A stretch of 63,604 bases of DNA, counting the filler. It is 6 parts of 6 records of this genome, joined end to end, with 100 filler letters (N's around TTAATTAATTAA, not from the genome) between each part and the next. Parts side by side here need not be neighbours in the genome. Positions count along the whole stretch, not along the records: positions 11,979 to 18,232 come from SRR31156797_10382; 5 more parts are not named here. One strand, given 5' to 3'. The notes under the pieces were generated by a model that saw only the letters and a program-made list of their open reading frames with translations, had not been told where the DNA came from and searched no databases. Every line of letters begins with the position of its first letter. Position 1 is the first letter of the stretch. The translations under genes were made by a program, and so were the position numbers. This document shows positions 1 through 59,025 of this stretch, one piece after another.

Positions 1-77
1 CTGGATATTTTTCATATCCCCATGATATCAGGTTAGATGTCCAGGCCTGTTAACGGCTTTATACTACAGGATTCTGT

Positions 78-542
78 ATGAAATTTTCAATAATGAAACA
101 AGGGCAAGAAAATATAGTAATTGAGGTTGTAAAAGAAGTTTTCAATGAATTCGTTGCACCGGGTTACACTCAAGATGGAATTGATGAATTTTTCAATTAT
201 GCAAATGTTGAAAAGTTGACGGAAAGATCAAGGATTGACCATTTCACAATCCTTGCTCAGGATAATGATCGAGTCATGGGTATAATTGAAATCAGGAACC
301 CCAATCATGTGTCTATGTTTTTTGTTCAGAGAGATTTCCAAAATAAGGGTGTTGGTAAGGCATTGTTCAAGGAAGCAATGAAGCTGATCACCAAAAAAAA
401 TCAGAATATTGAGGAACTGACCGTAAATTCATCTTTGAATGCAGTCCCGGCCTACGAGCGTTTGGGCTTTCTGGTTCAGGGGGGAGAGCAGTGCTTAAAC
501 GGGATAAAGTTTGTTCCAATGAAGCTAAGTTTAAGGCAATAG
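78..542 (+). CDS. GNAT family N-acetyltransferase
   Basis: 154 aa; acetyl-CoA motif A (FVQRDFQNKGVGKAL) and C-terminal NAVPAYERLGF. Confidence 0.85.
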   Translation: MKFSIMKQGQENIVIEVVKEVFNEFVAPGYTQDGIDEFFNYANVEKLTERSRIDHFTILAQDNDRVMGIIEIRNPNHVSMFFVQRDFQNKGVGKALFKEAMKLITKKNQNIEELTVNSSLNAVPAYERLGFLVQGGEQCLNGIKFVPMKLSLRQ

Positions 543-568
543 GCAGTTAGCAAAAAACTGAAGTTTGA

Positions 569-626
569 CAATTAAAGGCCAACGACCTTTTGTACAGGAT
601 CCAAGAGTGTCGTTCGCCTTTAATTG
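569..626. terminator. Long imperfect hairpin between convergent genes (probable terminator)
   Basis: CAATTAAAGGC-C-AACGAC ... GTCGTT-C-GCCTTTAATTG inverted repeat. Confidence 0.5.
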
Positions 627-686
627 CAGGGTATTTAAAGCATAAAATCAATTTAATAATAGCATCTTGATTTCAATGATCGCTAT

Positions 687-2555: not shown

Positions 2556-2583
2556 GAAAGAACCTCCTTTAAAAGGGGTGTGC

Positions 2584-3516
2584 CTAACCCAGTTGAAATA
2601 CGGATGATGCCGTTCCCGACATAATCATTTGAATTTCCTCCGGTGTAAATACAATGTCAGACTGGGGGTCGGTAAACACCTTGACCCATTGCTCCGGCGG
2701 CATCAGCGTACAGGGAAGCGGGGCGTCAGTGGCCCACATCAGCCGGCCGGCCCCGCATTCGTCGATCAAGAACCTCAGCCAGCTGTAAAATTTTTTTGTT
2801 CCCCAGGTGTGGTAATTAAACTGGTGGTAGGAAAGATCAAAGTAGAGGTTGGGAATGAGTTTACCGTACATCACCGCTTCTTCCCACAGATCCATGGCCA
2901 CATGGGCCATAATAAACTTGGTGTCCGGAAACCGGGTGGCGGCTTCCGCCAAAAATAATGAGCGCTGATGGTCCAGATATACGGGGGCGGCCGGCTGGGC
3001 ACCGGTGTGAAATACCAGGGGCACATTCCAGCGGGCACATTTTTCATACAGGGGAAACAATATTTCATCGGTGGGATAGAAACCGGCGGCCGGATGAAGC
3101 TTAAACCCGCCCATTTTCCAGTCTTCGATGCATTGCTCAGCATGGGCAATCGCCCCGGGACGCCTTGGGTCCAGGGCGCAAAGTGCAAGGAAACGATCCG
3201 GATGACGCTGGGCAATCCGGGCATAGTGACGGTTTATATCAAAGGGATGCATGGCCGGGTCGCCCAGTTCTTTACCGAAATCCGATCCAAAGATTACCGC
3301 TTTATCGATTCCGGCAATGTCCATTTGGGACAAAAATTTTTCGCCGTCAGGATCATACATGCCTGTAATCAGATCATTCCTGGCGTCTTCCAGGGACATG
3401 TCCATATTGTGCTTGTTTTTCATTATCAGCCGCATTGTTCTGGCCATTCCCATTTTATAGGCGTCGGGAATGATGTCTTCGCTGAATAAATGAACATGGG
3501 TATCATAAATTTTCAT
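2584..3516 (-). CDS. Amidohydrolase_2 family metal-dependent enzyme
   Basis: DTHVH metal motif, GFKLHP, VFHTG, IMAH, WATDAP. Confidence 0.85.
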   Translation of the reverse strand: MKIYDTHVHLFSEDIIPDAYKMGMARTMRLIMKNKHNMDMSLEDARNDLITGMYDPDGEKFLSQMDIAGIDKAVIFGSDFGKELGDPAMHPFDINRHYARIAQRHPDRFLALCALDPRRPGAIAHAEQCIEDWKMGGFKLHPAAGFYPTDEILFPLYEKCARWNVPLVFHTGAQPAAPVYLDHQRSLFLAEAATRFPDTKFIMAHVAMDLWEEAVMYGKLIPNLYFDLSYHQFNYHTWGTKKFYSWLRFLIDECGAGRLMWATDAPLPCTLMPPEQWVKVFTDPQSDIVFTPEEIQMIMSGTASSVFQLG

Positions 3517-3588
3517 CGCAGGATCTCCGTTACAATTTTATTTGACCGGGCCGCAACTCTTTAAATCAGCCCGGATATGTCACCAGCC

Positions 3589-4980
3589 TTAAAGGTCTTC
3601 GGGCCTTATATCCAGGGGCACACTGGGTTCTTTCCCGATTTCGGACAGGGTCTGCCAGACCCGTTTTTTAATAGGAAGAATGGGGCGGCGGGCATATTCA
3701 TCCATAAACTGTTCGTATCCGACCGTCGGGTTCTTAATGCATCGGCATGGAAGGGCCACCATAAACCGGCCGATACATCCCTGATTGCACCGGGTGCATT
3801 TGATTATTTCATCTTCCCTGCCTTCCTGAACCTTGACGACCCAGTCCGGGTCTGCAATCTGCTGCCTGCCCTGGGACACCATATCTGCGGCCCCGGACCT
3901 GAGGGCCTCTGCCACATTGGCCGGTCGGTGCACCGACGGACAGATCAATGGAATGTTCAGGTTTTCATTGATTATTCTGGCCTTTGGAATGACCTGACCT
4001 TCATGGTTGGGAAGGAAATCATCCATCTTTTCATAGGATCCGTCGGACAAATGAATGAAGTTGGCGCCTTCTTCTTCGCAGCGTTTGGCTATCCGCTTGA
4101 AATCTTCGCCGGTACATCCTTCCGGGACATTGTCCGAAGCGCTCAGGCGCACGCCCACATTGAAGTCCGGGCCTGTATATTTTCGGCAGGAATGGATGCA
4201 TTCCTTCAGGAACCGGATCCGGTTTTCAAATGTTCCCCCGTATTCATCGGTCCGCCGGTTGGATCGTCTGGAAAAAAAGGTATGGAGCAGATATCCGTGG
4301 GGGGCATGGATTTCCACCCCGTCAAACCCGCATCGCTTGGCCAGTTTGGCTGAAATCCCCAGGTCGCGGACCAGGGTCTGGATTTCTTCCACGGTAATTT
4401 CTCTTGGGGTCTCTCCGTTCATGTGGGTTCCGGGGATTTTGTTGGCAAAGCAGATCAATTCGTCCACATCCTCTGTCTTGGGGATGGGGCCCTGGTATCC
4501 GCATGCCCGGACCAGGGCCAAAGGATCCATGCCGTTGACAAGGTTTTCAGGATATGTGGTATAGGGAATGGGGGAAGCGGATACCGGCTGGACGGCCCCG
4601 GCTTCACTGGTGCCCTGGCGGCCCGGCCCCAGGCCCAGCTGGACAAATATTTTCGCCCCAAATGCGTGAACATGCTCCACAAGCTCTGACATCCCGGGAA
4701 CAAATAATTCATTGTGCAGGCTGGCATTGTTATATTTTTTATAGGTATCTGCCGTGGAATGACCGGTTGCCATCACCGCTTCCATGATGATAAGACCGGT
4801 TCCTCCCTTGGCACGGGCCGCATAGTAGGCCATCTGCTGGTCACTGACATGGTGGTTGGGCCCCGTGTAATTCATGTTCATGGGCGCCATGGCAATCCTG
4901 TTTTTAATCTTAACATTGCCGATGGTGATGGGGTCAAAAATCGGGCTGTAATCCCTGTTTTCTTCTGCGGCTGAGCTCAT
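3589..4980 (-). CDS. NADH:flavin oxidoreductase (old yellow enzyme family) with Fe-S motif
   Basis: KNRIAMAPM, GFDGVEIHAPHGYL, NRRTDEYGG, C-terminal CTRCNQGC...C. Confidence 0.9.
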   Translation of the reverse strand: MSSAAEENRDYSPIFDPITIGNVKIKNRIAMAPMNMNYTGPNHHVSDQQMAYYAARAKGGTGLIIMEAVMATGHSTADTYKKYNNASLHNELFVPGMSELVEHVHAFGAKIFVQLGLGPGRQGTSEAGAVQPVSASPIPYTTYPENLVNGMDPLALVRACGYQGPIPKTEDVDELICFANKIPGTHMNGETPREITVEEIQTLVRDLGISAKLAKRCGFDGVEIHAPHGYLLHTFFSRRSNRRTDEYGGTFENRIRFLKECIHSCRKYTGPDFNVGVRLSASDNVPEGCTGEDFKRIAKRCEEEGANFIHLSDGSYEKMDDFLPNHEGQVIPKARIINENLNIPLICPSVHRPANVAEALRSGAADMVSQGRQQIADPDWVVKVQEGREDEIIKCTRCNQGCIGRFMVALPCRCIKNPTVGYEQFMDEYARRPILPIKKRVWQTLSEIGKEPSVPLDIRPEDL

Positions 4981-5015
4981 TGACTACCTCCTTAATAAAA
5001 ATGATGGTGGGTGTT

Positions 5016-5450
5016 TCAGATTCCATCCTTTTGGACGGTTTTGTCCGCCGGGATGAATTTGGGAAGGGTGACTTCCGGGGTTACGGGGTCGAATTTCACC
5101 CGTACCGGCATATCGCAGCGGATGTCATTGAATTCACACCCTTCGATATTGGTCAGAATATTGAATCCTTCCTCCAGTGTGACCACGGCAAGCACAAAGG
5201 GCACATGGGGCATGAATTCCGGGGGGGCCGCATCATAGGTGATTGTGAAAGAGAAGATCTTTCCCCGGCCCGAGGATTCCTGCCACCCCAGGTTGCGGCC
5301 CATGCAATTGGTGCAGATCCCCTTTGGAAAGAAAATCACTTCCCCGCAATCTTGGCATTTTTGGTAAAGCAGTTGATTGTTTTTGCATCCCTCATAGAAT
5401 TGCCGGCTTAACCCGGTCATTGCCGGCAGGGGTTTGGTATACTCCGTCAT
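5016..5450 (-). CDS. DUF35 Zn-ribbon/OB-fold protein (thiolase partner)
   Basis: CQDCG...CTNC ribbon then OB-fold (SGRGKIFSFT, VVTLEEG); adjacent to a thiolase. Confidence 0.9.
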   Translation of the reverse strand: MTEYTKPLPAMTGLSRQFYEGCKNNQLLYQKCQDCGEVIFFPKGICTNCMGRNLGWQESSGRGKIFSFTITYDAAPPEFMPHVPFVLAVVTLEEGFNILTNIEGCEFNDIRCDMPVRVKFDPVTPEVTLPKFIPADKTVQKDGI

Positions 5451-5452
5451 TG

Positions 5453-6643
5453 TTAGACCTCCCTTCCTAAAACACCCACGTGAAAATCCATGCCCACGCC
5501 TCCTGACGCTGTTTCAACAACGATATCGGCATTTTCGACCTGGCGGTCCCCCGCCTTTCCCATGACCTGCCGGGCCGCTTCAACCAGAATGGCGATTCCG
5601 CCTCCTGCTCCGGTGTGCCCCTGGGCCATCATGGCTCCGTTGGTAGACACCGGCAGTCTGCCCCCGGGTGAGGTATGGCCTTCTTCCACAAATTTTCCGG
5701 CAGCCCCGCGCTCGCAGAGTCCCAGCAGTTCCATGGACATGAGCAGGAAAGAGGGGAAGGCATCATAAATCTGGGCCACATCAATATCCGCCGGGCCTAT
5801 TCCGGCCATCCGGTAGGCGTCTGTAACGGCCGGTCCCCAGGCGCCGGTCAGGTCCGGAGGCTGATGGGTGACGGTGAAATTCGTGTTTCTGGAGGCCATT
5901 CCCAGTATATATGCGGGTTGCGGGCAAAGCTCCCTTGCCCTCTGGGCGGTGGTGACGATATATGCGGCAGCCCCGTCGCAGAGAATATTCATCATCTTTT
6001 TTCGTACCGGAGATGAGATCATTTTGGATGAAACAATTTCTTCCACGGTTTTGGGGGTTCCAAGAAAGGCATTGGGGTTCAGGGCCGCCCATTTTCTCAA
6101 GGAGGTCACAACGGCTGCAATCTGGTTTTCCGTGGTGCCGGTGTCATGCATGTAGCGCTGCTGGAGCAGCCCGCCCAGGGCAAGCTGGCTGAAGCCGTAG
6201 GGGGTCTCGTATTCCTGGTTGACAGAGACTTTGGAGAACTGGGTCAAGGCCGTGCCAAGATCAATTCCGGTGCCCATGCGGTCGCAATGGACCACCAGCA
6301 CCGCCCTGGAAAGCCCTGTGCAGACCAGTGCACTGGCCACCTTCAATGAATTGGCAGAGCTGGATCCGCCGGACATTACCTGGAAATTGGCCTTTGCCGT
6401 TCGTGTCATCCCCAGCTCCTCAATCATCCATGAGCAGATCATGTTGGCATTGTCCAGGCCATTGCTGACAACCCCTATGGGAATGACCGTATCTATTTCA
6501 TCCTTGGAGATACCGGCATCTTTGATGGCCATATCGCATACATCCACTGCGGCACTGATAAAGGACCGGTCCGGAAACAGGCCTGTGGGCACTTCTCCGA
6601 TTCCCACAACGGCGGCTTTACCCCGGATACTGTCTTGATTCAT
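5453..6643 (-). CDS. Thiolase-family protein (SCP2/Ltp2-like, lacks nucleophilic Cys)
   Basis: AAVVGIG, NPNA, CDGAAA, QIYDAF, STNG..AQGH. Start moved to ATG 6643, which has an AAGGAG SD; the longer ORF overlaps the upstream gene. Confidence 0.85.
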   Translation of the reverse strand: MNQDSIRGKAAVVGIGEVPTGLFPDRSFISAAVDVCDMAIKDAGISKDEIDTVIPIGVVSNGLDNANMICSWMIEELGMTRTAKANFQVMSGGSSSANSLKVASALVCTGLSRAVLVVHCDRMGTGIDLGTALTQFSKVSVNQEYETPYGFSQLALGGLLQQRYMHDTGTTENQIAAVVTSLRKWAALNPNAFLGTPKTVEEIVSSKMISSPVRKKMMNILCDGAAAYIVTTAQRARELCPQPAYILGMASRNTNFTVTHQPPDLTGAWGPAVTDAYRMAGIGPADIDVAQIYDAFPSFLLMSMELLGLCERGAAGKFVEEGHTSPGGRLPVSTNGAMMAQGHTGAGGGIAILVEAARQVMGKAGDRQVENADIVVETASGGVGMDFHVGVLGREV

Positions 6644-6666
6644 GATGTACTCCTTTGTGTTTAAGG

Positions 6667-7812
6667 TTAAAATCCAAGGAGCATCCGCCCGATGATGCTT
6701 CGCTGCATCTGGGAGGTGCCCCCGCCGATCATCCCCATTTTGGCGCTCCAAAGACTTCTTCCCACAGGATACTCGGCCATGCAGCCGTTGCCCCCGTGGA
6801 TCTGGATCGCCTTGTCCGCTACCCGGAATGCGGCTTCGGTGATAAAGGTCTTTGCAACAGCCGCATCCAGGCTGATATCCTGGCCCCCGTCTTTTTTCCA
6901 GGCCAGGTGGTAAACCAGGTGGCGGGAGGCTTCGATGTCCATTTTCATTTCCGCCAGCAAGGCCTGCACCAGTTGAAACCGGCCTAGGGGCCGGCTGAAC
7001 TGTTCTCTGGTTTTGGCGTATTGGATACTTTGCTTCAGGTCATTTTCCATCAGGCCCACATAGGGTGCGAATGCGATTCTTTCCCATCCCAGGGAAAACA
7101 GCATTTGGGAAAATCCCTGATTCTCTTTGCCCAGAAGATTGGCCTCAGGCACCCGGCAGTCATCAAAAAACAACTCACCTGTGGGGGCGTCATGGTTGGC
7201 GTATTTTTCAAGGGGGGCGCCTGTTGTAAGTCCGGGGGTATCTTTATCCACAATAAACATGGACAGGCCCCGGCCTTTGGCTGCAGGGTCGGTAGAGGCA
7301 AATACCACAAACACATCGGCGATGGGTGCATTGGAAATGAAGGTCTTTGAACCGTTCAGCAGATACCAGCCATCCTTTTTTTGGGCTGTGGTTTTCATGC
7401 TTGTGGCATCCGAACCGGCGTCGGGTTCGGTCAGGGCAAAGGCACCGATCCGTTCACCTGACGCCATTTTGGGCAGGTAGGTTTCTTTTTGGGCATGGTT
7501 TCCCAATTCGGCAATGGGCATGGCCGTAAGCAGTAGATGACTGGCCAATGCCACAAGGAGTCCGGAATCTCCGCTGGCCCTGGCAAGGGCAATCAATGCC
7601 GTCACGGTTGTGAGAGCCCCTTCTCCGTCTCCTCCGTATGCTTGGGGGATACTCAGACCGGTCAGGCCGAATTGTCCGAGTTTATTCCATACCACAGGGG
7701 AAAACCCTGAATTCAAAGCCCGTTCATCCACACCGGGACGCAGCTCCTTTCTGCCGAACTCTTCTACGGATTTGCGGAACATCTCCTGCTCTTTGCTCAA
7801 GGAAAAATCCAT
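6667..7812 (-). CDS. Acyl-CoA dehydrogenase
   Basis: AFALTEPDAGSD, LNGSKTFISN, REQFSRPL, IQIHGGNG, GGTSQMQR. Confidence 0.92.
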   Translation of the reverse strand: MDFSLSKEQEMFRKSVEEFGRKELRPGVDERALNSGFSPVVWNKLGQFGLTGLSIPQAYGGDGEGALTTVTALIALARASGDSGLLVALASHLLLTAMPIAELGNHAQKETYLPKMASGERIGAFALTEPDAGSDATSMKTTAQKKDGWYLLNGSKTFISNAPIADVFVVFASTDPAAKGRGLSMFIVDKDTPGLTTGAPLEKYANHDAPTGELFFDDCRVPEANLLGKENQGFSQMLFSLGWERIAFAPYVGLMENDLKQSIQYAKTREQFSRPLGRFQLVQALLAEMKMDIEASRHLVYHLAWKKDGGQDISLDAAVAKTFITEAAFRVADKAIQIHGGNGCMAEYPVGRSLWSAKMGMIGGGTSQMQRSIIGRMLLGF

Positions 7813-7857
7813 TGTCCATCTCCTGTATTCAAATGTTATGCTTTATATCCAGACCGC

Positions 7858-8286
7858 TCATGAGGGAAAGTTCACCAGGGCTTCCCCTTTTATGACAGCA
7901 TCACCATTCTGATTGACCACCTTAAGGGCCAGCGCCGCCAGGTTTTGATTGTTCTTCTGTGTTTTTTGAACAACATGTCCCAGAAAAGAGAGGGTGTCTC
8001 CGGGCCATACAATTCCTGTGAACCTTATTTTATATTGCTTTAACACCCCGTAACCGGCCCAGTCCGTCAGTGTTTTTGCCAGCATACCGCCGTGCATCAG
8101 CCCGTTGGCGAAAATGGACGGCAGGCCGCTGGACACAGCAAAGGCTTCATCGTGATGAATGGGTTGAAAATCGCCCCCGGCACCGACATATTTAATGATA
8201 TGGGTTCGGGTTACCTTAAGTGCAAAGGAGGGAAGCGCCTCTTTTTCCCTGATATCTTCAAATCGCTTTAATGCATATTCAGCCAT
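7858..8286 (-). CDS. MaoC-like (R)-enoyl-CoA hydratase, catalytic subunit
   Basis: Hydratase-2 motif GDFQPIHHD...G. Confidence 0.85.
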   Translation of the reverse strand: MAEYALKRFEDIREKEALPSFALKVTRTHIIKYVGAGGDFQPIHHDEAFAVSSGLPSIFANGLMHGGMLAKTLTDWAGYGVLKQYKIRFTGIVWPGDTLSFLGHVVQKTQKNNQNLAALALKVVNQNGDAVIKGEALVNFPS

Positions 8287-8301
8287 GGGTCACCTTTTGG
8301 G

Positions 8302-8757
8302 TTATCTTTCGATAAAAAGATTGTTGACCGTAATCACCAGTTCATTGTCGCTGTCGAAGAATAGATTTTTCATTTCGACAAATGTCATGGTCTTTCCATT
8401 GCCGCCTTCCTTTTCATAGATTTGGCCCACGTGAATTTCCCCGCGCAGGGTTTCACCGGCACAAACTGCACGCTCGTAAATGAATTCCGCTTCACCGTGA
8501 ACACTGGTGGCAACATTCATTCCAAGCTTCTGGGTCATCTCCATTACAAAGTTCTCCGATTCAATATGAAACCCGTTGGTAACGGGAAATGTCGGAGGCA
8601 TGGGAACACCTGAAAACCCCTTGGATGCCGCATAGTCCGGGTCGGAATAAATTTTGCTTTTATCCTGAACTGCCCAGGCAAATTCCCTGATTTTTCCCCT
8701 TTCAACGGGCATTTGAAATTCCAGTATTTTTTCCCCCTCAAGTTTTTTATTGATCAT
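8302..8757 (-). CDS. MaoC N-terminal / hotdog-fold partner subunit
   Basis: VERGKIREFA, PPTF, VHGEAEF hotdog pattern; directly upstream of MaoC. Confidence 0.8.
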   Translation of the reverse strand: MINKKLEGEKILEFQMPVERGKIREFAWAVQDKSKIYSDPDYAASKGFSGVPMPPTFPVTNGFHIESENFVMEMTQKLGMNVATSVHGEAEFIYERAVCAGETLRGEIHVGQIYEKEGGNGKTMTFVEMKNLFFDSDNELVITVNNLFIER

Positions 8758-8812
8758 GGTGTTTTCCTTTTTAGGTGTGTAATAGTTATAAATTTTTATT
8801 TAATACGTTGAT

Positions 8813-8827
8813 GATAGTGATCACTAA
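8813..8827. promoter_or_regulatory. Putative TetR operator 1
   Basis: GATAGTGATCACTAA containing the perfect palindrome TAGTGATCACTA, upstream of the catabolic operon. Confidence 0.55.
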
Positions 8828-8920
8828 CTATTAAGGCAAAAAAAAACAACAGCAGTTGTACGGTTTTTTTTCTTAGGTATTCACCTATCAAATGAATTTA
8901 TAGTCTATAATATTTTTTTG

Positions 8921-8935
8921 TTAATGATTACTATC
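8921..8935. promoter_or_regulatory. Putative TetR operator 2
   Basis: Reverse complement GATAGTAATCATTAA (13/15 to site 1), just downstream of a minus-strand TTGACA (8953-8948). Confidence 0.45.
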
Positions 8936-8989
8936 GAAAGTTTAATATGTCAACATTTTTTTATCCCTGCGTGTAAGTAACTGTAATAT

Positions 8990-9604
8990 TTAATTATGAG
9001 GCGACAGGATTTTTTTTATGATGTCAAAATAATGCACATATTTAAATTTTTTATCTTCCAGGGTCTCTTTCATACCGACCACACAAAAGTATTGATAGCA
9101 GAAAAAGGAGGAAAAAAATTCAGGATTCAAATTCTTATCGATTTTCCCTTTTTGGATCGCTGAGTGAAGTACCTTTTCAATGCTGGCGATTTGGTTGGCC
9201 ATGGCGGATTCAAAGGCAGCCTTAAAATCAGTGTCATCTTTATAACTGAGCATATGAACCAGAAACATGGATTTGTCAGGATTCTGGTCAACAAAGTCAA
9301 AATATGCCTTGCACAGGGCTTCGAGGCAGGCGATTTCATCGGCGTCATATGTTTGCAAAATCCCTTTGTTCTCACTGGAAAGCTGTCCCATAATGGATTG
9401 GAAACAATTGAGAAACAACTCTTTCTTATTCTTGAAATGTTTGTATAAGGTCGGCTCAGAGATTTTGGATTCCCTTGCAATCATGGCCGTTGTCGCTGCC
9501 TTGTAACCCCTGGTGTTGAATATCCGAATGGCAGTATCCAGTATGGTCTGGTGTCTGTTTTCATACAGCAGCAGTTTTTCCCTTGATTTATCGACTATAT
9601 TCAA
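8990..9604 (-). CDS. TetR/AcrR family transcriptional regulator
   Basis: HTH ILDTAIRIF...TTAMIARES.ISEPTLYKHFKNK; probable TTG start at 9604 after GAGGG. Confidence 0.9.
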   Translation of the reverse strand: MNIVDKSREKLLLYENRHQTILDTAIRIFNTRGYKAATTAMIARESKISEPTLYKHFKNKKELFLNCFQSIMGQLSSENKGILQTYDADEIACLEALCKAYFDFVDQNPDKSMFLVHMLSYKDDTDFKAAFESAMANQIASIEKVLHSAIQKGKIDKNLNPEFFSSFFCYQYFCVVGMKETLEDKKFKYVHYFDIIKKILSPHN

Positions 9605-9792
9605 AGCGCAACCCTCATTTTTTAGATTAATACCGATTACTATAGGTGCGGTTAGCATGTACTATTTTTTTTGTCAAACACTTTTATCGTCCGCCGGGCA
9701 CAGCCGTCAAAGCCCGGTAATATTTCATCCATCGGGCTTTTAAAAAAGGCTTGACAAATTTATAAAACTGAAATAGCACATTTTACTATATT

Positions 9793-9807
9793 GATAGTGT
9801 TTACTAA
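9793..9807. promoter_or_regulatory. Putative TetR operator 3
   Basis: GATAGTGTTTACTAA (13/15 to site 1), upstream of the divergent CoA ligase and downstream of TTGACA at 9751. Confidence 0.45.
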
Positions 9808-9948
9808 TATTAATTTTGTTATCAATTTCATAGTGATAATAAATGCTATGAAATTGCCGATGCCATTATGGAAACAGACCGGGGATGATGTCAGGAGCGT
9901 TTATTTTGCGAATGACCGGGGAGTTAACAACAATAAAGGGGGGTACCT

Positions 9949-11751
9949 ATGGCTAAAACATTGTTTTCACTTTTGAACAGACGGGTTCAAGAGACACCGG
10001 ATCGGGTCTATCTGAAATTCAGAGAACAGAGCGGGGCCTGGGGGGAAATGACCTGGAATGCCTATGGGCAAAAGATTGACCGCTTTTCAAAAGCATTGAT
10101 GGGCTATGGCATAAAACAGGGAGACAAAGTCTCACTCATCGGTCCCGGTTCTCCCAAATGGTTTGTGGCCGATATGTCAGCGATGACCACGGGTGCGGTG
10201 GTTGCCCCCATATATATTACAAGCAGTGGTGAGCAGATCGCCTATATTGTAAACCATTCCGAGGCAAGACTGCTGTTGGTTGACGACATCAATTATTTTT
10301 ACCGGATAGAACCGGTGATCAGTGAAATGCCGGGTCTTGAGCAGGTGGTTTTGTTGAACGGAAGGGCACCTGGAGACAATGACATGCTCACAGACCTGCC
10401 TTCCTTTGAAGCTTTGGGTGAAAACGTCTCTGATGAAGAACTGGCCGGGTGTCGACATTGCGTTGCCGAAAATATGGCGGCCTCCTATATTTACACCTCG
10501 GGAACCACGGGCAATCCAAAGGCCGTGATACTGAGCCAGAAGAACTATTTTGCAGCGGCCCAGAGCGTTTCCCAATGGCAAAAATTTTTGACGGAGGATA
10601 CCACCATCCCCCAGATCAAGCATGTTTGCTTTTTAACCCTGGCCCATGTTTTTGAACGGAACATGTCGATGACCGCTCCCCTTTTAACCGGGGCCTGCGT
10701 ATATTTCGGCGACCTGGGCAATGCCCTTCAAGAGTTACGGCAGATACAGCCGACCATTGTGGTGGCCCTGCCCAGAACCTGGGAAAAAATGTATGAAGGC
10801 ATCATGGCCTACCGGGGGCAGCTGCCCCCGGCCCGGCAGGAGGCTTTTGATCGGGCCGTCAATACCGGTAAAGCATACAATCTGCACCTTTATCAAAAGA
10901 CCGCTGTACCGCCGGAGCTTGAGGCGGATTATACCAGGGCCCATGATACGGTGATTGCAGCGGTTTTAGATCTGCTGGGCTGTTTTAAGGAGGCCAAACA
11001 CATCATGACCGGCGGCGCGGTCTCTTCGAGTAAAATCATTGATTTTTTCTTTTCCATGGGGATCTGGATCTGTCAGGTATACGGCCAGAGCGAATCCCTG
11101 GGCATGGGGGCGGCCGAAACCAGGGATTATCTCAGGTTCGGCTCAGTGGGCAAAGCCTTTCCGTTTTCGGAAGTTAAAACAGCCGATGACGGTGAGATCA
11201 TGTTGAAAAGCGAGATGGTATCCCCGGGTTACCATGACGAGCCTGAACTCAACCGAATCACCTTTAGGGATGGATGGCTTTATACCGGCGATATCGGGAC
11301 AATCGACGCGGATGGTTACCTGTGTATTACCGGCAGGAAAAAGGACATCATCATTACCTCAGGGGCTAAAAATATCACCCCGGCCAAAATAGAGGGCGCA
11401 TTGATGGGATCGCCCCTCATCGAACATGCAGTTGTCGTGGGCGAGGGGAAAAAGTTTCTCACCGCCCTGGTGACCCTCAGTCTGGAGGGGGGGAAAGCCT
11501 GGGCCGGAAACCGGGGAGCGCATGTTGAAACCTATATGGATCTTTTGGGCCTTGACCTTGTCAGCCGTGAAATAGATCGCCATGTTGCCCGGGTCAATGA
11601 GAAATTTTCAAGGGTGGAGCAGATAAAAAAGTTCTTCATTCTTCCCACACCCTTGACCGAGAAAAGCGGCGAACTCACGGCACTTCAGAAATTAAAGCGC
11701 TTTAAAGTCATAGAAAACAACACCCGGTTCATTGAAAAAATGTATGCCTGA
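9949..11751 (+). CDS. Long-chain fatty-acid--CoA ligase family protein
   Basis: YTSGTTGNPK, YGQSE, DGWLYTGDIG, GRKKDIIITSGAKNI. Confidence 0.9.
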   Translation: MAKTLFSLLNRRVQETPDRVYLKFREQSGAWGEMTWNAYGQKIDRFSKALMGYGIKQGDKVSLIGPGSPKWFVADMSAMTTGAVVAPIYITSSGEQIAYIVNHSEARLLLVDDINYFYRIEPVISEMPGLEQVVLLNGRAPGDNDMLTDLPSFEALGENVSDEELAGCRHCVAENMAASYIYTSGTTGNPKAVILSQKNYFAAAQSVSQWQKFLTEDTTIPQIKHVCFLTLAHVFERNMSMTAPLLTGACVYFGDLGNALQELRQIQPTIVVALPRTWEKMYEGIMAYRGQLPPARQEAFDRAVNTGKAYNLHLYQKTAVPPELEADYTRAHDTVIAAVLDLLGCFKEAKHIMTGGAVSSSKIIDFFFSMGIWICQVYGQSESLGMGAAETRDYLRFGSVGKAFPFSEVKTADDGEIMLKSEMVSPGYHDEPELNRITFRDGWLYTGDIGTIDADGYLCITGRKKDIIITSGAKNITPAKIEGALMGSPLIEHAVVVGEGKKFLTALVTLSLEGGKAWAGNRGAHVETYMDLLGLDLVSREIDRHVARVNEKFSRVEQIKKFFILPTPLTEKSGELTALQKLKRFKVIENNTRFIEKMYA

Positions 11752-11878
11752 TTACGCCCGGATACCCTCGCTTACTGGCCGCGCCTTGCTGGCGGCAGCA
11801 AGGCATTGTCAGGAATGGATGTGGGAAACGCCTTAATGAAGCTTCAGGGATTTGATATGGGCAATGAGTTGTCTGAAG

Positions 11879-11978
11879 NNNNNNNNNNNNNNNNNNNNNN
11901 NNNNNNNNNNNNNNNNNNNNNNTTAATTAATTAANNNNNNNNNNNNNNNNNNNNNNNNNNNNNNNNNNNNNNNNNNNN
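11879..11978. other. Artificial contig linker
   Basis: 44 N + TTAATTAATTAA (stops in all six frames) + 44 N. Confidence 0.98.
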
Positions 11979-11980
11979 AG

Positions 11981-12109
11981 ATAAGTTATTGTGAAGTACC
12001 TAATTGCCCTACTTCTTTTGGAGTTTTTGAAGAAAGTGGAAGTTGTTATGTAGAGCAATGCCCCGAAGGAACTGTTGAAAATTATAATGGGGAGTGCATA
12101 GATGAATAG
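11981..12109 (+). CDS. 3' end of a Cys-rich protein (partial at contig start)
   Basis: Own translation ISYCEVPNCPTSFGVFEESGSCYVEQCPEGTVENYNGECIDE*; overlaps the next ATG. Confidence 0.6.
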   Translation: MSYCEVPNCPTSFGVFEESGSCYVEQCPEGTVENYNGECIDE

Positions 12110-12953
12110 AAGAGATTTATTAAAATTTTTGACATTACCTTTTTTTTCTAAAGCTTTATTTGCAAATGATAAAAATAATACTTTTAGAATAACAATGAAT
12201 GGTGATTTAGATGATGATTTAATAGTGCTTAAAGCTACCTCAGCAAACTGCATAATTAAAGATATTTATCAAATGCATAACCCAAGTGGAAAACTAAAAT
12301 ACGATGGTCAAGTTTATGATATTAAACACTCTCCAGGTTTCATTAGCTTTGAAGAAGAGTATCAAATCAAAGATGATGAGGTTTATTGTATTTGCCTTGC
12401 AAATGAAAGAGAAGAAGAATCACTTCCAAGAGATAAAAGAATCAGAACACATTATAAAAGTGAAAAGCTATTATTTAATAATCAAGTGTTGTTTCCTGCT
12501 TTAATGCCAGAGTATAACTCAGTACCTAACTACCCTTTATGGTTCAATAGTATTGAAACACCACGAATTGATAGAAGGGATATCAATGGTAATACATATA
12601 ATTACTACAAACTATTTGAAAATACTACCGTTCCATTTGGAATAGTAGTATCAAAACATGGAAATATAAAAGTAATGCTTTTTAATCAAAACAATGAATT
12701 AATGTATTCATTTAATGAACAAGTTACTACAAAAGTAAAAAATTTGAAAAGTGAAGAGCTTAAAAATAAAAAGCTTAAGTCACATCCATTTACAGAGTTA
12801 AATAATATTCTTAATATTGATGAAGAAAAAGAAATCTCAAACAATGATTATATTGAAACTGTTGTTCTTGAATATGATAATAGATTGTTTACTATTAAAA
12901 TGCCCTACCCAATTATGTACCCAAACCTACTTTATACAGTATCAGTAAATTAA
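12102..12953 (+). CDS. Exported protein, paralogue of the internal domain of the TraN-like protein
   Basis: Twin-arginine-like N-terminus MNRRDLLK; collinear motifs shared with aa ~383-662 of ORF 14779. Confidence 0.75.
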   Translation: MNRRDLLKFLTLPFFSKALFANDKNNTFRITMNGDLDDDLIVLKATSANCIIKDIYQMHNPSGKLKYDGQVYDIKHSPGFISFEEEYQIKDDEVYCICLANEREEESLPRDKRIRTHYKSEKLLFNNQVLFPALMPEYNSVPNYPLWFNSIETPRIDRRDINGNTYNYYKLFENTTVPFGIVVSKHGNIKVMLFNQNNELMYSFNEQVTTKVKNLKSEELKNKKLKSHPFTELNNILNIDEEKEISNNDYIETVVLEYDNRLFTIKMPYPIMYPNLLYTVSVN

Positions 12954-12962
12954 GGAAAAAAA

Positions 12963-14147
12963 ATGAAAAAGATATCAAGTTATGAAAAAATTTTACACTG
13001 GTTGTTATTACTAAGTTTCTTAGGATTGTGTTTTACTGCATTAGCTGCTGAATATTTTTTTAGTAAAGAGGCAATAATGGACTCTTTTAAAAAGTCTTTG
13101 CCAATGCTTAATATAACAATTGCACCTGCAGACCAATTCTTTATTTCAAGAATTGCAAGAAGAGATACATGGGATATCCATTTATATTTTGGTTTAGCAT
13201 TTTCTTTATTTACTATCTTATGGATATCTATTACTTTACTAAGAAAAAACTCTAACTACATTTTATTTAAGACTATCTTCTTCAGTAGTGCCTTAACACT
13301 AGTTGTAACTGGTATTTATATGTGGTTAAGACTTTATATTGAAGTTTCAGAAGAAACATTCTCATTACTTAAAAAAATTCATTATTACGCATATTGGGCT
13401 TTTATATATACCTTAGTAACTCATATTGCATATGTAATTTATGCTGAGAATAAAAAGAAAAGAAAAGGAGCATTTTCAAACATGGTAAATTTTAAAAATC
13501 TTATAGCTGCTATTTTAATATCTAGTACATTTGTTTCAACACCATCTTTAGCAGAAGAAAGTGATTTAAAAAAATGGGCTAATGATAGAAACTATATTGA
13601 AGGAGTATTGTATATTGAAGGTGATAAAGGTTATGACACTCTAGTTAAAGAAGTTGCAAATTGTCCTTATGATAAATGTAAACTTGAAGATATAGACCAA
13701 ACTCAATTTGGTACAAAAAAGATTGAAATCAAAAAACCTAATTATAAAAAAGCAATTAAACTTTTATCACAATCATCAAAGGCAGGAAATCCTCTTGCAA
13801 GTGAAAAACTTCTTACCTTCTTAACAAAAAGAATTGATTATAAAAGTAAAAAGCCTAATGGTTACTTATTAAAAGAACTAAAAAAAGACACTGGATTAAA
13901 TCTTAAAGAATACAGAAAAATCATCATTGATACAGTTGAAAATGGAACAAATTCTAATAAAAGTTGTTTCAGTGAATTTCTTGCAGCTGAAATGTATGAA
14001 AAAGGTATTTTAAATACAAAAATAAATATTGAAACTTCAATCAAACATTATAAAAGAGCTACTGAGATATGCCCTAGTAACAATTTATTTAAAATGTTAG
14101 CTAATGGGAAATATAACAATCTTAGTAAACAATCTAAGAACTTATAA
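12963..14147 (+). CDS. Di-heme cytochrome b (b561/Ni-hydrogenase type) fused to a Sel1-like domain
   Basis: Four TM helices with His (LHW, IHLYFG, IHYY, THIAY), then a signal-like segment and Sel1-like motifs (NYKKAIKLL..SSKAGN, AEMYEKG...HYKRA). Confidence 0.65.
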   Translation: MKKISSYEKILHWLLLLSFLGLCFTALAAEYFFSKEAIMDSFKKSLPMLNITIAPADQFFISRIARRDTWDIHLYFGLAFSLFTILWISITLLRKNSNYILFKTIFFSSALTLVVTGIYMWLRLYIEVSEETFSLLKKIHYYAYWAFIYTLVTHIAYVIYAENKKKRKGAFSNMVNFKNLIAAILISSTFVSTPSLAEESDLKKWANDRNYIEGVLYIEGDKGYDTLVKEVANCPYDKCKLEDIDQTQFGTKKIEIKKPNYKKAIKLLSQSSKAGNPLASEKLLTFLTKRIDYKSKKPNGYLLKELKKDTGLNLKEYRKIIIDTVENGTNSNKSCFSEFLAAEMYEKGILNTKINIETSIKHYKRATEICPSNNLFKMLANGKYNNLSKQSKNL

Positions 14148-14158
14148 AAAGGATTTTT

Positions 14159-14461
14159 ATGGTTGCACGAATGAAAGAGAAGAACAGAAAGAAAAGCGAT
14201 GTTAGAAAGTGTCTTATATGTGGAAAAAAAGCATCAAGAACATATGAAAACTTTTGCTCACTAAAATGTACTAAAGATTATGCTGAATATAAAACTATAA
14301 ATATGCCTATTCCTTTTGTAAAAAGACTTTTCAACCATTGTCCAAATGAAGCACATAGAATTGAACAATTAAAAACTTATGCCAAAAGACATAAATATAG
14401 AGAAGATTTTGTAATCAAAAGAGCAAATGAAATAAATAGAGAGATTAATCGTCATGGATAA
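14159..14461 (+). CDS. Hypothetical protein with treble-clef-like Zn finger
   Basis: CLICGK...FCSLKC; SD AAGGA. Confidence 0.6.
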   Translation: MVARMKEKNRKKSDVRKCLICGKKASRTYENFCSLKCTKDYAEYKTINMPIPFVKRLFNHCPNEAHRIEQLKTYAKRHKYREDFVIKRANEINREINRHG

Positions 14462-14786
14462 TATTAAAGTATTAAATATAAAAGAAAAAATTGATATTGC
14501 AAAGAAAACAACTTCCCATGAAGTATTGACATTTCTATCAGAAGATTTATCTATAAATGTGCGTACTGAAGTTGCTAAGAATCTAAGTACTCCAGTCGAA
14601 GTTATTAATAAATTAGCATATGATGCAGTATTAAATGTTTCATATACAGCTAATAAACATTTTAGATGTACTGTAAAAAGAGAGTTTAACTCTTCCCCTT
14701 CAAATAATTCTTGTGTTGTTTGTGATGTACTTGAAATTGAAAAACTAACATATTGTAGCAATTGTCAAAGGAAACACTATGCTTAA
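14454..14786 (+). CDS. Hypothetical protein with LRV/HEAT-like repeats and Cys-rich C-terminus
   Basis: LSED...VRTEVAKN..TP.EVINKLAYD; CVVC...CSNC. Confidence 0.6.
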   Translation: MDNIKVLNIKEKIDIAKKTTSHEVLTFLSEDLSINVRTEVAKNLSTPVEVINKLAYDAVLNVSYTANKHFRCTVKREFNSSPSNNSCVVCDVLEIEKLTYCSNCQRKHYA

Positions 14787-17700
14787 TATTAAAAAATTAT
14801 ATCAAAACTTTTTAAGTGTATTATTAGTTAATCTATTAATATTTCATACTGTATTTCCAGTTTATGCTCAAGCTACTTCTGATAATCCAGATACTGTTCT
14901 AAGAGATAGTTGGTTTTTTAATCAAACTGATACATCAACTAGTGGAGAACCTTCAAATCTGAAATATTTTAAACATTTCGATGCAATGCCAGAAGAAATC
15001 AATCTTAAAATATTCAAAGACCAAGATTTATCACATTTAGAGGGGAAAAAACTCTTTGTTGGATATGGACTTGCTGATCCAAAAAATGGAGATTGTAAAG
15101 TTTTTCCAGCAAGTGAGACAGGATATACTAATGATATAACTGTTTGTTTACCTTGGTGGAGAATTGAAAGGGAATATGTTGTAAATAAAACAAATGAAGA
15201 AGTAACTGCTCAAAACCAAATACTTGAAGATATTAAAAATAATACAAGACCACCTATTAATTTTAAGACTTGTAAAGCTTGGGATAATGGAAAACAATAT
15301 CCAGGAGGAAAGGTAACTTGTACAAGTTATTATGATAGAAATGCATCATCAAGTTGTTGGAGTAATCCAGAACAACCAGAGTGTTGGGTAAACAACTGTT
15401 CTGAAAACATTAAAAACTATTGTACTTATATAGATAGTGCAGTTGGAGAAAAGACTACTTTAGAAACAGCAACTAATAGTGCTGTTGGTTCACCTGTTGC
15501 AACCTCTACAAAAATTAATCTTATTTCTCATCAATATGATTGTCCTTCTGGTCCACTTGTTGAAAAAGTAAAATGTTTAGATGAAGTTAGTGCAACAATA
15601 TTTCCTCAAGAGTGTTCAGAAGGGGTTTATGAATATTGTGATGAGAGAAGACCTAATTTTGATGGTGCAGGAAACCTAGTTTCATACTCAGGAACTTGTT
15701 CAAATGGGAAAGAAATAGTTTGTGAAGCCAATAAATTTAATACTCAAAGTAAGATATGTACAGCTCCTATTTATAAAGATTATGAAACAAGCGATATTCA
15801 ATCGGCAACTTTAACAAGAGATTATGAAACTTTTGAAGCTGATGTTTTATCTGGTGAACCAGATATATATATGGCTAAAGACAACTGTTTAAGAGCTAAT
15901 ACTGTTGAAGATGCAAGAAATCAAGAATTATTTGTAAAAATTAAAGGTAGTGGTTTCCTTGATGATGATATTTATGTACTTAGACACGCAAGTGATGGTT
16001 CTCATATCAAAGTTTATTGTAATATGCAACACGCAGAGAATAGAGGAAATAGAAAGAATTATAACGGGGATATCTTACAGTGTATAGACAATGACGGTAA
16101 TTATTCTTTCAATAAGACTACGGAAATTAAAACAACAGATATAGTATCTGTTCAACAAAACTCAGAAAATGAAAATGTAAGTGGAACTCCTTTTGCTTTA
16201 GGAAGAAATCATTATGGTTCAACTAAATTAACTATTGACGGAGTTGAAGTTGCACCTGAAACATTTGCAGGTAACTTTCCATATTATCCTAGGGATACTA
16301 GTTGGTTAAGGACATGGGATAATACAACTTCAACATTTTCTATCCTTTTTCCTTTTGCAGGTGCATATGATATTAGGTTCTATAATAAAACCAACACTGA
16401 AGTTGCAAAAGCATTAATTTCAATTGAAGACTTTAGGGAAATTGTTGAAGATGGTTCTTTACAATTAAAACTTGGTAAAAATATGCTACTTGCACCAAAA
16501 ATGCAAGATGATTTCATTAATGAAGATGGTACAAAAACACTTAAAGCCAATAGAGAAGATAACTGGGTTGAATGGGGTGGTGGTGTATTTGGTGGTAGAC
16601 ATTCTACTAAAGGTACATCAGTTTTAAAACCTAATGACTCTTATGTAAAACAAAATGCTGTACACAGTGTTATTATTAAAGATTTAATTACAGGAGCTAT
16701 AACACCTATTCCATTAGTTTACCCTCTTCCTTATCCTAATAGAGTTTTTGTAAGTAAGCTTAATGTATATGAGAAAAGAAAATATAGATGTTATAACGAC
16801 TTCCCAGATACTACATTCTTAGGAACGAGTACTTCATCTGAAATAAAACAAGTTTGTAGTACTGATCCAAATTATATTGACTATAAAAGTGGACTAAGTA
16901 TAGACTCTACAATTATCCCTAAATGGGAAAATGAAACAATATGTGGTCAAAACTGTAGACAATATGAAGAGTGTACTCTAAATACGAATGATAACTATAC
17001 TTGTGAACAAAGAGGTGGAGAAGATATCGGAGGCGATATTGCAGGTAATGAATTCTCTTCAAAAACTTCTTGTAATGAACAATGCTATAAACAGAATGAA
17101 TGTGTAGACTTCAGAGACAATAAATGTAATCTTGTAGAAGAAAAAGTTTCAGAACCAATTTCTGATATGTATGGGAAAACTGTATTTAGAAAGAAAGAAG
17201 TAGCTTATAGATGTATTGATAATGTTAGAAAACAAGTAGGATGTGATAAATGGGAGTATAAAGACCTAGAAGGAGATACAACATTTAGGCATGATGCAGG
17301 TTTTGAGACATTTGATTTTAGTTCAAACTTTGAGAAAGCAGTTACCCATGCAGCTAATTTAGAAGTTGGGATGTTACACATTTGGTCAGGTTGGAAAGGT
17401 GAATGTGTATATGGTAAAAAATGGGATTTCTCTTATCTTTCTGATCCAATGACATTAGTAAGTTATGCAATGATGGCATATTCAAGTTATGAATGGTTTA
17501 ATTCTACAGGAACAACTACTACCAACAACAATGATGGTGGTGGAGGCGGTGGCTCTAGTGGTACTGATGGTGGTGGTGCAGGAGCAGGTGGAGCAGTAAA
17601 TGCTACTTCTAACCTTACTCAATCAACATGGGGACAATTCCAAGAGTCAATTAAAAAAATTGCAACAGATTTTCAAGCAGGATGGGATGATTTAGCGAAA

Positions 17701-18232
17701 GATGTTACAAAAAGTTTAGAAACAGTTACAAAACCATTCACAACTGCTTATAATGACTTAATGACCTCTTTAGGAAATAGTATAACAAAAAATCCTTTTA
17801 CTGAAAGCTTAAGCAAAATTTCTGATGCAATTACTAGTGGGATTACAGAAAACCCAATTAGTGATGCTATAGGAAGTGGATATGATGGTATCAAAGGAGG
17901 AGTTGAAGGGTTATATAGTGATGCAATGTCAAAAATCACTGAACTTTCTAAAGATACTTTTATGGGTGAAATGATTGGAACATTAGAAGGCTCATATCAA
18001 AAAGTTACTGATTTTTTAGCAAAAGATATTATTGGACAAAGTGGAGATTGGGTTCATATTACTTATGGAAAATTAGCAAAGTTTGGAATTAATGTTGCAA
18101 TGGCAGCTATGGCTCCTCCTCCAGAGGCATACCAAAAAGCAGACCAGATTTTAAAAGGTTATTATGGTATGTCTTCAGAAGAAAGTGATTTAGTTGCATA
18201 TAACTCTTGTATGGCATCTATTGGACTATCAT
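14779..18232 (+). CDS. traN: TraN-like mating-pair stabilisation protein (3' partial)
   Basis: Signal peptide, >1150 aa, very Cys-rich; NFEKAVTHAANLE...HIWSGWKGEC resembles the TraN C-terminal F..A...L / IF.G....C block; runs into the gap. Confidence 0.7.
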
Positions 18233-18332
18233 NNNNNNNNNNNNNNNNNNNNNNNNNNNNNNNNNNNNNNNNNNNNTTAATTAATTAANNNNNNNNNNNN
18301 NNNNNNNNNNNNNNNNNNNNNNNNNNNNNNNN
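18233..18332. other. Artificial contig linker
   Basis: N-run + TTAATTAATTAA + N-run. Confidence 0.98.
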
Positions 18333-25377: not shown

Positions 25378-25477
25378 NNNNNNNNNNNNNNNNNNNNNNN
25401 NNNNNNNNNNNNNNNNNNNNNTTAATTAATTAANNNNNNNNNNNNNNNNNNNNNNNNNNNNNNNNNNNNNNNNNNNN
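25378..25477. other. Artificial contig linker
   Basis: N-run + TTAATTAATTAA + N-run. Confidence 0.98.
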
Positions 25478-32871: not shown

Positions 32872-32971
32872 NNNNNNNNNNNNNNNNNNNNNNNNNNNNN
32901 NNNNNNNNNNNNNNNTTAATTAATTAANNNNNNNNNNNNNNNNNNNNNNNNNNNNNNNNNNNNNNNNNNNN
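32872..32971. other. Artificial contig linker
   Basis: N-run + TTAATTAATTAA + N-run. Confidence 0.98.
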
Positions 32972-58890: not shown

Positions 58891-59025
58891 TCACTTCGAA
58901 AACAGGATCAGTCAGAACACCGCCTTCAGTGTTCCCAGAAACCCTTGCGGTGTCAACGACCCTGGGGCTCGGTCTCGGCGTATCCGGCCCTTGAAAAAAA
59001 CGGCTCCAGGGGCATACTTGCGCGT

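Follow-up and report, generated by a model that had tools for sequence, protein, structure and literature searches.

Free and embedded forms of a beta-rich domain shared by a TraN-like conjugation protein and a cytochrome b561-linked module in Campylobacterota

Why does a contig that encodes a TraN-like conjugation protein also encode the central domain of this protein as a separate, exported copy? The question is raised by a 63.6-kb stretch of DNA (the window), and within it by a single 6254-bp contig (11979-18232), on which the whole finding sits. In mating by F-type plasmids, the choice of recipients is set by TraN, a protein of the donor. The domain in question, called X here, is present on this contig as a free protein (P0001) and as a part of the large TraN-like protein (P0002), and the two forms are homologous over the whole mature length of the free one. 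The gene next to free X encodes a cytochrome b561-type membrane protein with a Sel1-like domain. The explanation preferred here, held with moderate confidence, is that free X functions with this cytochrome/Sel1-like protein rather than as a decoy or an adhesin. The features that carry the argument (lengths in amino acids, aa) are the following.

12102..12953, + strand: free X protein P0001, 283 aa, with a twin-arginine-like signal (MNRRDLLK...ALFA/ND) and an all-beta X domain (~27-282)
12963..14147, + strand: cytochrome b561-type membrane protein (PF01292), 394 aa, with an extra hydrophobic segment and a Cys-containing Sel1-like C-terminal domain
14779..18232, + strand: TraN-like protein P0002, 1151 residues present, no stop, cut at the contig end
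15091..15900, + strand: N-terminal Cys-rich region of P0002, aa 105-374, 16 Cys, homologous to the N-terminal part of an annotated TraN
15931..16761, + strand: embedded X domain of P0002, aa 385-661, 2 Cys, paralogue of the free protein
16762..17418, + strand: second Cys-rich region of P0002, aa 662-880, 13 Cys, aligning to Persephonella TraN 452-601
17419..18232, + strand: Gly-rich and helical region of P0002, aa 881-1151, reaching the contig end

The earlier note on this DNA had aligned the free open reading frame (ORF) with an insert of the large ORF by means of seven motif pairs. All seven are found and are collinear. BLASTP aligns P0001 (12102-12950) with P0002 (14779-18231) at 24% identity (E 3e-8, residues 29-198 to 387-539). 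In hhalign, the alignment of 125 free-family sequences matches that of 101 internal-region copies, excised from relatives of the large protein, with a probability of 100% (E 9.2e-46, 236 columns), and the match spans P0001 27-282 and P0002 385-661, i.e., the whole mature length of free X. In the control series the free profile matches the true insert (probability 100%, E 5e-46, 246 columns) but not the N-terminal Cys-rich region (0.6%, E 0.098, 32 columns), the C-terminal half (0.1%, E 0.53, 1 column) or the reversed insert (14%, E 0.002, 20 columns). A hidden Markov model (HMM) of the free family matches the large ORF at 1.1e-26. The collinearity is thus confirmed. The insert was also correctly described as Cys-poor (2 Cys in 385-661 vs 16 in 105-374 and 13 in 662-880), and the free copy does stop at the end of the domain (P0001 283 vs P0002 661).

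A phmmer search with the single sequence P0001 against 1.84 billion representative proteins returns 35 relatives, all of 334 aa or less, so the link to the TraN-like protein needs pairwise or profile comparison. AlphaFold2 predicts free X (102-sequence alignment) as an all-beta fold with a predicted local distance difference test (pLDDT) of 92 and a predicted template modelling score (pTM) of 0.88. The P0002 model (58 sequences) averages a pLDDT of 70, with 88-98 for residues 380-670. Compared by strand order, the beta-strands of free and embedded X correspond one-to-one.

The identity between free and embedded X is ~21-24%. About 20 positions of the joint alignment are near-invariant in both forms (free/embedded numbering): G34/392, D37-39/395-397, H59/418, G79/440, E102/463, E104/465, R115/476, H117/478, P132/493, Y144-P145/503-504, N174/515, E232/598, Y269-P270/648-649, Y273/652 and N275/654. 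These residues are mostly acidic, His and Asn, and such polar residues shared by both forms suggest a common metal or ligand site.

Could the free gene be a recent spin-off of the TraN-like gene? In a FastTree phylogeny computed from 111 rows (every second sequence, with the first 12 free and the first 6 embedded ones added), 57 free and 54 embedded copies fall on opposite sides of a branch with 100% support, and branching is deeper on the free side. Since the two clades are separate and the free side is deeper, the free gene is not a recent spin-off of traN, and recent duplication from TraN into the free gene is ruled out. On this phylogeny, free and embedded X appear as two old, separate clades.

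The next point to be settled is whether the large ORF belongs to TraN. No Pfam or NCBIfam family is found on P0002, which lacks ~300 C-terminal residues, lost at the contig end; this missing part is where PF06986 (F_T4SS_TraN, cut-off 23 bits; T4SS, type IV secretion system) matches in relatives. Among the 113 database relatives of the large protein, this family matches the C-termini of P0005 (26.4 bits), P0006 (26.4), P0049 (26.3) and P0068 (31.2), as well as the separate C-terminal halves at the loci L002 and L022 (23.0 bits each). It stays below the cut-off for P0004 (20.9 bits), the closest full-length relative (93% identical, 1447 aa), and gives no match for P0036. One of the 113 relatives is named TraN by NCBI. 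The annotated TraN of a Persephonella marina plasmid with type F mating-pair formation (MPF-F) is collinear with P0004, residues 58-300 aligning to 118-374 (E 3e-15), 503-601 to 800-901 (1e-5) and 694-803 to 1289-1392 (2e-8); tblastn of P0002 against plasmids gives E 6e-8.

P0002 contains 32 Cys in 1151 residues and P0004 contains 44, the criterion for TraN in PMC9246713 being at least 20. A hydrophobic N-terminal leader ending in VYA/QA can be read from the P0002 sequence. The TraN-like gene stands after TraU-TrbC in pAMYT (Malaciobacter mytili), L022, L023 and L036, and pAMYT also carries TraU, TraH and a TraD-like gene. Collinearity with Persephonella TraN, the PF06986 matches of relatives and their position after TraU-TrbC uphold the assignment of the large ORF as TraN-like.

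X takes the place of residues ~300-452 of Persephonella TraN. According to PMC9246713 and PMC13104618, TraN combines a conserved base with a tip that varies, a beta-sandwich by which outer-membrane proteins of the recipient are bound. The latter source puts the tip of long TraNs at the same position, in R27 for instance at residues 305-457. The position of the shared domain is thus that of the tip, as had been proposed. Its likeness to a variable tip does not hold: no other part of the protein is as conserved as X. When 54 fused full-length proteins are compared pairwise, mean identity is highest in X (0.589, residues 385-661), vs 0.451 in the N-terminal Cys-rich region (105-374), 0.442 in the second Cys-rich region (662-880) and 0.321 in the Gly-rich/helical region (881-1080).

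The relatives of the large protein have several architectures. The fused form (1319-1562 aa) is represented by 53 of the 113; 41 comprise the N-terminal part and X (656-696 aa) and stop ~15 residues past X; 11 (1203-1330 aa) end with the second half of X; the other 8 include P0104 and P0105 with a 155-residue insert instead of X. In L002 (Sulfurimonas; 5342-7405 and 7417-9555) and L022 (genome G191; 8737-10809 and 10802-13339), the gene for the N-terminal part and X is followed by a separate gene for the C-terminal half with PF06986. The split genes part right there, so a protein boundary occurs naturally where X ends. In the FastTree tree, the split forms emerge close to the base of the embedded clade, and the fused form may be derived.

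The region of P0002 beyond the second Cys-rich part (881-1151) includes a Gly-rich stretch (GGGGGGSSGTDGGGAGAGG) and long predicted helices, with pLDDT mostly below 50 and 32% mean identity. Its counterpart in Persephonella TraN is only a shorter unaligned stretch. The same region gave spurious antibody-linker matches in the PDB search.

What kind of protein is free X? A word-indexed search finds 115 relatives of P0001 (226-327 aa, down to ~30% identity). Those with names come from Aliarcobacter, Malaciobacter, Sulfurimonas, Sulfurospirillum and other Campylobacterota, and nearly all are annotated as 'hypothetical'. An alignment of 102 members has 17 invariant columns, including G34, D37-39, Q57-N60, N101-E102, R115, H117, N174, E232 and Y273. 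The twin-arginine-like leader noticed previously is a conserved trait by motif count: 81 of the 102 members have Arg-Arg (RR) among their first 25 residues, in 77 of them as RRx followed by hydrophobic residues, and the leaders of the remaining 21 are Sec-like. Export by the twin-arginine translocation (Tat) pathway is likely, and no lipobox Cys, surface-targeting, outer-membrane or secretion feature is seen in free X, which would place it in the periplasm.

Neither Pfam (E <= 0.1) nor NCBIfam assigns P0001 to a family, and the 102 members share no Pfam family (E <= 0.01). A match of P0001 to Vgb_lyase in Pfam (E 0.011, 15 bits vs a cut-off of 50) is noise. Sequence searches of the PDB with P0001, P0002, P0068 and the profiles A1 and A3 return only low-complexity or chance matches. 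Fold searches with the P0002 model and, in BFVD, with the free X model find nothing at E <= 0.001, and ESM Atlas gives no usable match for X. The best description of X is that of a new family of all-beta domains, ~260 residues long, with no Pfam entry and no convincing match among solved folds.

DOMON-type domains are frequent partners of cytochrome b561 domains. X has an invariant Met-His and an Arg-x-His motif. A match to DOMON or to haem b domains of the cellobiose dehydrogenase type is found neither in Pfam nor among the fold-search matches listed, and a haem b/DOMON-like reading is left unsupported by sequence or fold, although the lack of a weak match is compatible with such a fold.

The neighbouring ORF 12963-14147 matches PF01292 (cytochrome b561/Ni_hydr_CYTB) with 51.1 bits vs a cut-off of 30.1. 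Across 41 sequences of this protein, three histidines (H73, H140, H154) never vary and H12 is kept in at least 90%; these are putative haem ligands. C234, C239, C335 and C370 of the C-terminal domain are invariant in the same sequences. PF08238 (Sel1) scores 22.9 bits on this domain, below the cut-off of 30.7; of 60 relatives, 2 have a precomputed match to it. The N-terminal helices show in a hydropathy scan; the extra hydrophobic segment before the C-terminal domain was read by eye.

How constant is this neighbourhood? It was surveyed with HMMs built here in 44 free-X loci (the window contig, pAMYT, three species-genome loci, G191 and 38 metagenome loci). Free X has a cytochrome b561/Sel1-like gene no more than 500 bp away in 34 of the 44, and at a distance of 1.3-5.8 kb in three. 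The parts occur in different arrangements. X is followed by the fused cytochrome-Sel1 gene, as in the window; the fused gene precedes X (L043-L045, L053); cytochrome, X and Sel1-like part form three genes in this order (L021 at 9337-11969, L051, L055, L057); or X is followed by cytochrome and Sel1-like part (L035, L037). Since fusion, fission and permutation are typical of parts of one system, the three are taken as parts of a single putative module.

This module also occurs outside conjugative contexts. In L003 and L004 it lies beside genes of an M23 peptidase, CMD and DUF6923, a shared non-conjugative surrounding. Here a giant secreted protein (1602 aa, L003 2423-7228, - strand; 1335 aa, L004 3906-7910, - strand) with DUF6923 and DUF7305 repeats is divergently adjacent to the X gene, and this synteny is kept between two different genomes. 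In L034, free X stands among RecT/SSB genes. In L056 the free X gene (3-674) is cut at the contig start and lies beside genes (824-10663) of a DDE transposase, chlorite dismutase, a molybdopterin oxidoreductase together with its Fe-S and delta subunits, and Rieske/cytochrome b; this context looks like a perchlorate- or chlorate-reduction island. In L002 (13122-17055), the X/cytochrome pair is followed by a 331-aa ORF without a Pfam match, then by a 1009-aa protein with an HNH domain and by Cas1; an integrase lies further on. The HNH-domain protein and Cas1 may represent a type II CRISPR-Cas locus.

The relation of free X to transfer genes is looser. The six ORFs of the window contig are all on the + strand and overlap or lie at most 11 nucleotides apart, and no terminator-like site is found on the contig. 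Promoter-like matches are no commoner than in shuffled sequence (29 vs a mean of 34.3). The order seen in the window (large Cys-rich ORF, X, cytochrome-Sel1, small ORFs, TraN-like gene) recurs in the metagenome loci L027, L028, L033 and L036, the last of which reads thioredoxin-like, TraU, TrbC, two large ORFs, X, cytochrome and then TraN-like. A TraN-like gene is present in 7 of the 44 free-X loci; among the 20 loci that extend for at least 4 kb to one side, 6 have such a gene. The earlier note had placed free X in one operon with traN. The tight packing on one strand and the recurring order support this, but the steadiest neighbour of free X is the cytochrome/Sel1-like gene (34/44) and not traN (7/44). 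Elsewhere the X/cytochrome pair stands just after the split TraN genes (L002), 7 kb away from the TraN-like gene (pAMYT) or 80 kb from the transfer genes (G191).

Whole genomes give a complementary picture. X is found in 7 of 401 sampled genomes of the order: free and embedded in G001, G191, G228 and G401, free only in G002, G003 and G223. All four genomes with embedded X thus also carry free X. TraU is found in 15 of the 401. Five of these proteins are divergent (85-168 bits) and belong to the same four genomes and to G085; nine genomes with a canonical TraU (260-346 bits) have no X; in the fifteenth, G005, TraU scores 21.6 bits, below the cut-off. A 1484-aa TraN-like frame of G085 matches the profile on both sides of X and not in X, and no free X is found in this genome. 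Neither TraU nor a TraN-like gene is found in G002, G003 and G223. Free X is paired with the cytochrome/Sel1-like part also in genomes of this kind. Among 184 genomes of the family of G228, three have X; one of them, G455, has only the embedded form, on a 2.6-kb contig, and is therefore uninformative.

The preferred explanation combines these observations as follows. Free X would be exported to the periplasm, mostly with a twin-arginine-type leader and in about one-fifth of members with a Sec-type one. Its partner would be the four-helix cytochrome b561-type domain joined to a membrane-anchored periplasmic Sel1-like domain. The Sel1-like domain could dock X at the periplasmic face of the inner membrane, and the cytochrome could link the acidic/His site of X to the quinone pool, which would result in a metal- or redox-dependent reaction in the envelope. 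This module also exists alone. A divergent F-type transfer lineage of Campylobacterota would have incorporated a copy of X in its TraN, in the place of the tip, where the embedded domain may use the same site on a conserved target. Since the same near-invariant polar residues are kept, free and embedded X most likely bind the same conserved ligand or partner. Since the elements keep the module, here inside the transfer operon, the free module probably serves or regulates the X domain of TraN.

Several observations weigh against this explanation. Conserved Cys are absent from free X (median number 2, range 0-6), as is a haem motif. Foldseek against the PDB finds nothing at E <= 0.001 for its model, i.e., no solved redox or metal protein, and the VIA matches are weak and generic: the best of the wide search has a Z of 4.3 (DUF3244, immunoglobulin-like; 80 residues aligned, root-mean-square deviation (rmsd) 2.9) and that of a second look a Z of 3.4 (TerD, 118 aligned, rmsd 3.8). 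Curated Tat-signal models fired neither on P0001 (Pfam, NCBIfam) nor on the 102 members (Pfam), so Tat export is no more than likely. The embedded X sits in a Sec-type, disulfide-rich protein, so the X fold cannot need a cofactor loaded in the cytoplasm. No cytochrome gene is seen in 7 of the 44 loci, each of which has 535 bp of contig or less to one side of free X. Few genomes are counted, many of them drafts with completeness not given, so that absences there mean 'not found', and physical linkage alone could explain the co-occurrence with an X-bearing TraN.

A DsbB-like thiol oxidase serving the Cys-rich TraN was also considered and is ruled out by the absence of conserved Cys in free X.

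Alternatively, free X could be a partner subunit of TraN, which binds the TraN-like protein through its embedded X or its Cys-rich stalk and acts as a structural or maturation component of the mating-pair apparatus. The position upstream of the TraN-like gene within the transfer operon (the window and the four loci with its gene order) would fit this, as would the presence of free X in every sampled genome with embedded X. Several free-X clades are linked to T4SS loci (P0159/P0042, P0213/P0056, P0217/P0054), to judge by contigs of matching length, a hint of co-location and not a count, and the split after X in 41 of the 113 relatives indicates that this region tolerates assembly from separate chains. 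Against this stand the three genomes with free X in which no TraN-like or TraU gene was found, and the presence of a TraN-like gene in only 6 of the 20 loci with 4 kb or more to one side. Its placement with respect to the TraN-like gene is also inconstant (upstream, downstream, 7 kb or 80 kb away). A role as partner subunit is considered possible and somewhat unlikely.

The X/cytochrome/Sel1-like module could also be mere linked cargo, from which TraN once captured a domain of its neighbour, with no functional tie left. The module is found alone in non-conjugative contexts, its position within elements varies, and the free and embedded clades are deeply diverged (~21-24% identity); all this is what cargo would look like. 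It is harder to reconcile with the ~20 near-invariant polar residues of both forms. Moreover, the module is kept together with an X-bearing TraN across distant elements (Sulfurimonas, Malaciobacter, G191 and G401) and is absent from G085, whose TraN-like protein lacks X. The cargo explanation is regarded as doubtful.

Genes for surface and entry exclusion form part of the transfer regions of F-like plasmids. By analogy, free X could be an exclusion decoy, which occupies the target of the TraN X domain in element-bearing cells and makes donors poor recipients. The putative binding site is kept in both forms, and free X co-occurs with an X-bearing TraN. With a periplasmic-type signal and no lipobox Cys, outer-membrane or secretion feature, the protein would nevertheless be badly placed to mask a surface receptor, the tight coupling to a cytochrome b has no role in such a scheme, and free X is present in genomes where no transfer system was found. 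Free X as a surface decoy is unlikely, and the exclusion scheme as a whole very improbable. A second adhesin, by which free X at the cell surface would bind recipients alongside TraN, is hardly credible: homology to the domain at the TraN tip position is all that speaks for it, and it is opposed by a leader of Tat or Sec type only, with no anchoring or surface-export feature seen, by an inner-membrane cytochrome as the constant partner and by the lack of a match to phage receptor-binding proteins in BFVD (E <= 0.001).

How does the cytochrome-linked X compare with known systems? Like TraN of F-like, IncA/C and IncH plasmids, a mating-pair stabilisation protein of the outer membrane made of base and tip, the large protein is a Cys-rich exported protein with N-terminal, middle and C-terminal blocks collinear in its full-length relative, and has a beta-rich domain inserted at the tip position; in relatives its gene stands after TraU-TrbC. 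It differs in that the inserted domain is ~280 aa long and the most conserved part rather than the variable one, in its length of ~1450 aa with an extra Gly-rich/helical region, in the two genes split right after X in 41 of the 113 relatives, and in that the same elements also encode the domain of the tip position as a free paralogue. For known TraN, no such free paralogue was found in a literature search or in the parts of PMC9246713 and PMC13104618 that were covered. According to PMC13104618, TraNV of Acinetobacter baumannii plasmids has two tips (tip residues 149-628). The TraN middle region thus takes large, unusual insertions there as well. Homology of TraNV to X was not seen, no comparison having been made, and no free paralogue of TraNV is described in that part of the source.

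For the pair of X and cytochrome, the nearest described logic, by analogy, may be LcoA-BcnA. PMC9113575 describes it as a cytochrome b561 membrane protein and a secreted YceI-type lipocalin that detoxify lipid peroxyls in the envelope. Both systems are conserved gene pairs that act, or would act, in the envelope and join a cytochrome b561 of PF01292 type to a small, exported protein rich in beta-strands. Here, the exported partner is X and not a lipocalin (no YceI or other Pfam family is found in P0001 or the 102 members), the cytochrome carries or accompanies a Sel1-like periplasmic domain, and a conjugation protein contains a copy of the exported partner.

The Helicobacter cysteine-rich (Hcp) proteins of Campylobacterota are periplasmic or secreted Sel1-like repeat proteins with conserved cysteines. 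The four invariant Cys of the Sel1-like C-terminal domain resemble them; this domain differs in being tethered to, or encoded beside, a cytochrome b561 domain and in its Sel1 score below the cut-off. A literature search found no paper on the X domain, SMUL_1871, a free paralogue of the TraN tip-position domain or the TraN architecture of Campylobacterota. New here are a TraN with a conserved, borrowed central domain and a three-part envelope module linked to a cytochrome b.

The remaining features of the contig and of the window are given below.

11979..12109, + strand: 3' end of a Cys-rich ORF, cut at the contig start, its stop overlapping the next ATG
14159..14461, + strand: Cys4 zinc-ribbon-like ORF, 100 aa, with weak YacG/treble-clef matches, all below cut-offs
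14454..14786, + strand: ORF of unknown function, 110 aa, overlapping each neighbour by 8 nucleotides
11879-11978, 18233-18332, 25378-25477, 32872-32971 and 58463-58562: spacers between contigs

The tail at 11979..12109 resembles the C-termini of 467-916-aa proteins encoded upstream of TraN-like genes (L002 3356-4759, 467 aa; L023 5594-8341, 916 aa). An 881-aa ORF with no Pfam family (L036 7363-10005) occupies the corresponding place upstream of free X. These Cys-rich or large ORFs of L002, L023 and L036 all lie between TrbC and the TraN-like gene, and the upstream Cys-rich ORF may be a further uncharacterised transfer component. The position of the 100-aa Cys4 ORF is not kept in related loci; in L033 the cytochrome gene is directly followed by the TraN-like gene. 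No other recognisable transfer genes are present on the window contig.

The window itself is six contigs, not one molecule, joined by five spacers of the form N44-TTAATTAATTAA-N44, so the 'operon' of the earlier note is confined to one 6254-bp contig. G+C content is ~49-50% in two contigs (1-11878 and 58563-63604) and 29-30% in the remaining four. Genes of acyl-CoA, thiolase and ChsH2 type are found on the first two; the other four look Campylobacterota-like (RuvC, HydF, a Bat/MoxR-VWA operon). The record is probably a mixed bin.

What may follow for conjugation in this group? The lineage departs from known TraN systems in having a large conserved domain at the tip position, a free, probably periplasmic form tied to a cytochrome b, and both forms in transfer elements. 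A far-reaching possibility, speculative and rated as quite unlikely, is that mating-pair formation here may use a conserved metal- or redox-active domain, borrowed from the cytochrome b561-linked module, and not a variable tip; the free module would then charge or mature the TraN domain or shield the donor envelope in an immunity- or exclusion-like manner, and contact would be coupled to envelope redox chemistry. The link between X in TraN and the module is testable. If it is not functional, the locus is a clear case of a transfer protein that captured a domain of a neighbouring cargo gene. If it is functional, mating-pair formation would follow a different logic in Campylobacterota, a phylum whose conjugation is little studied.

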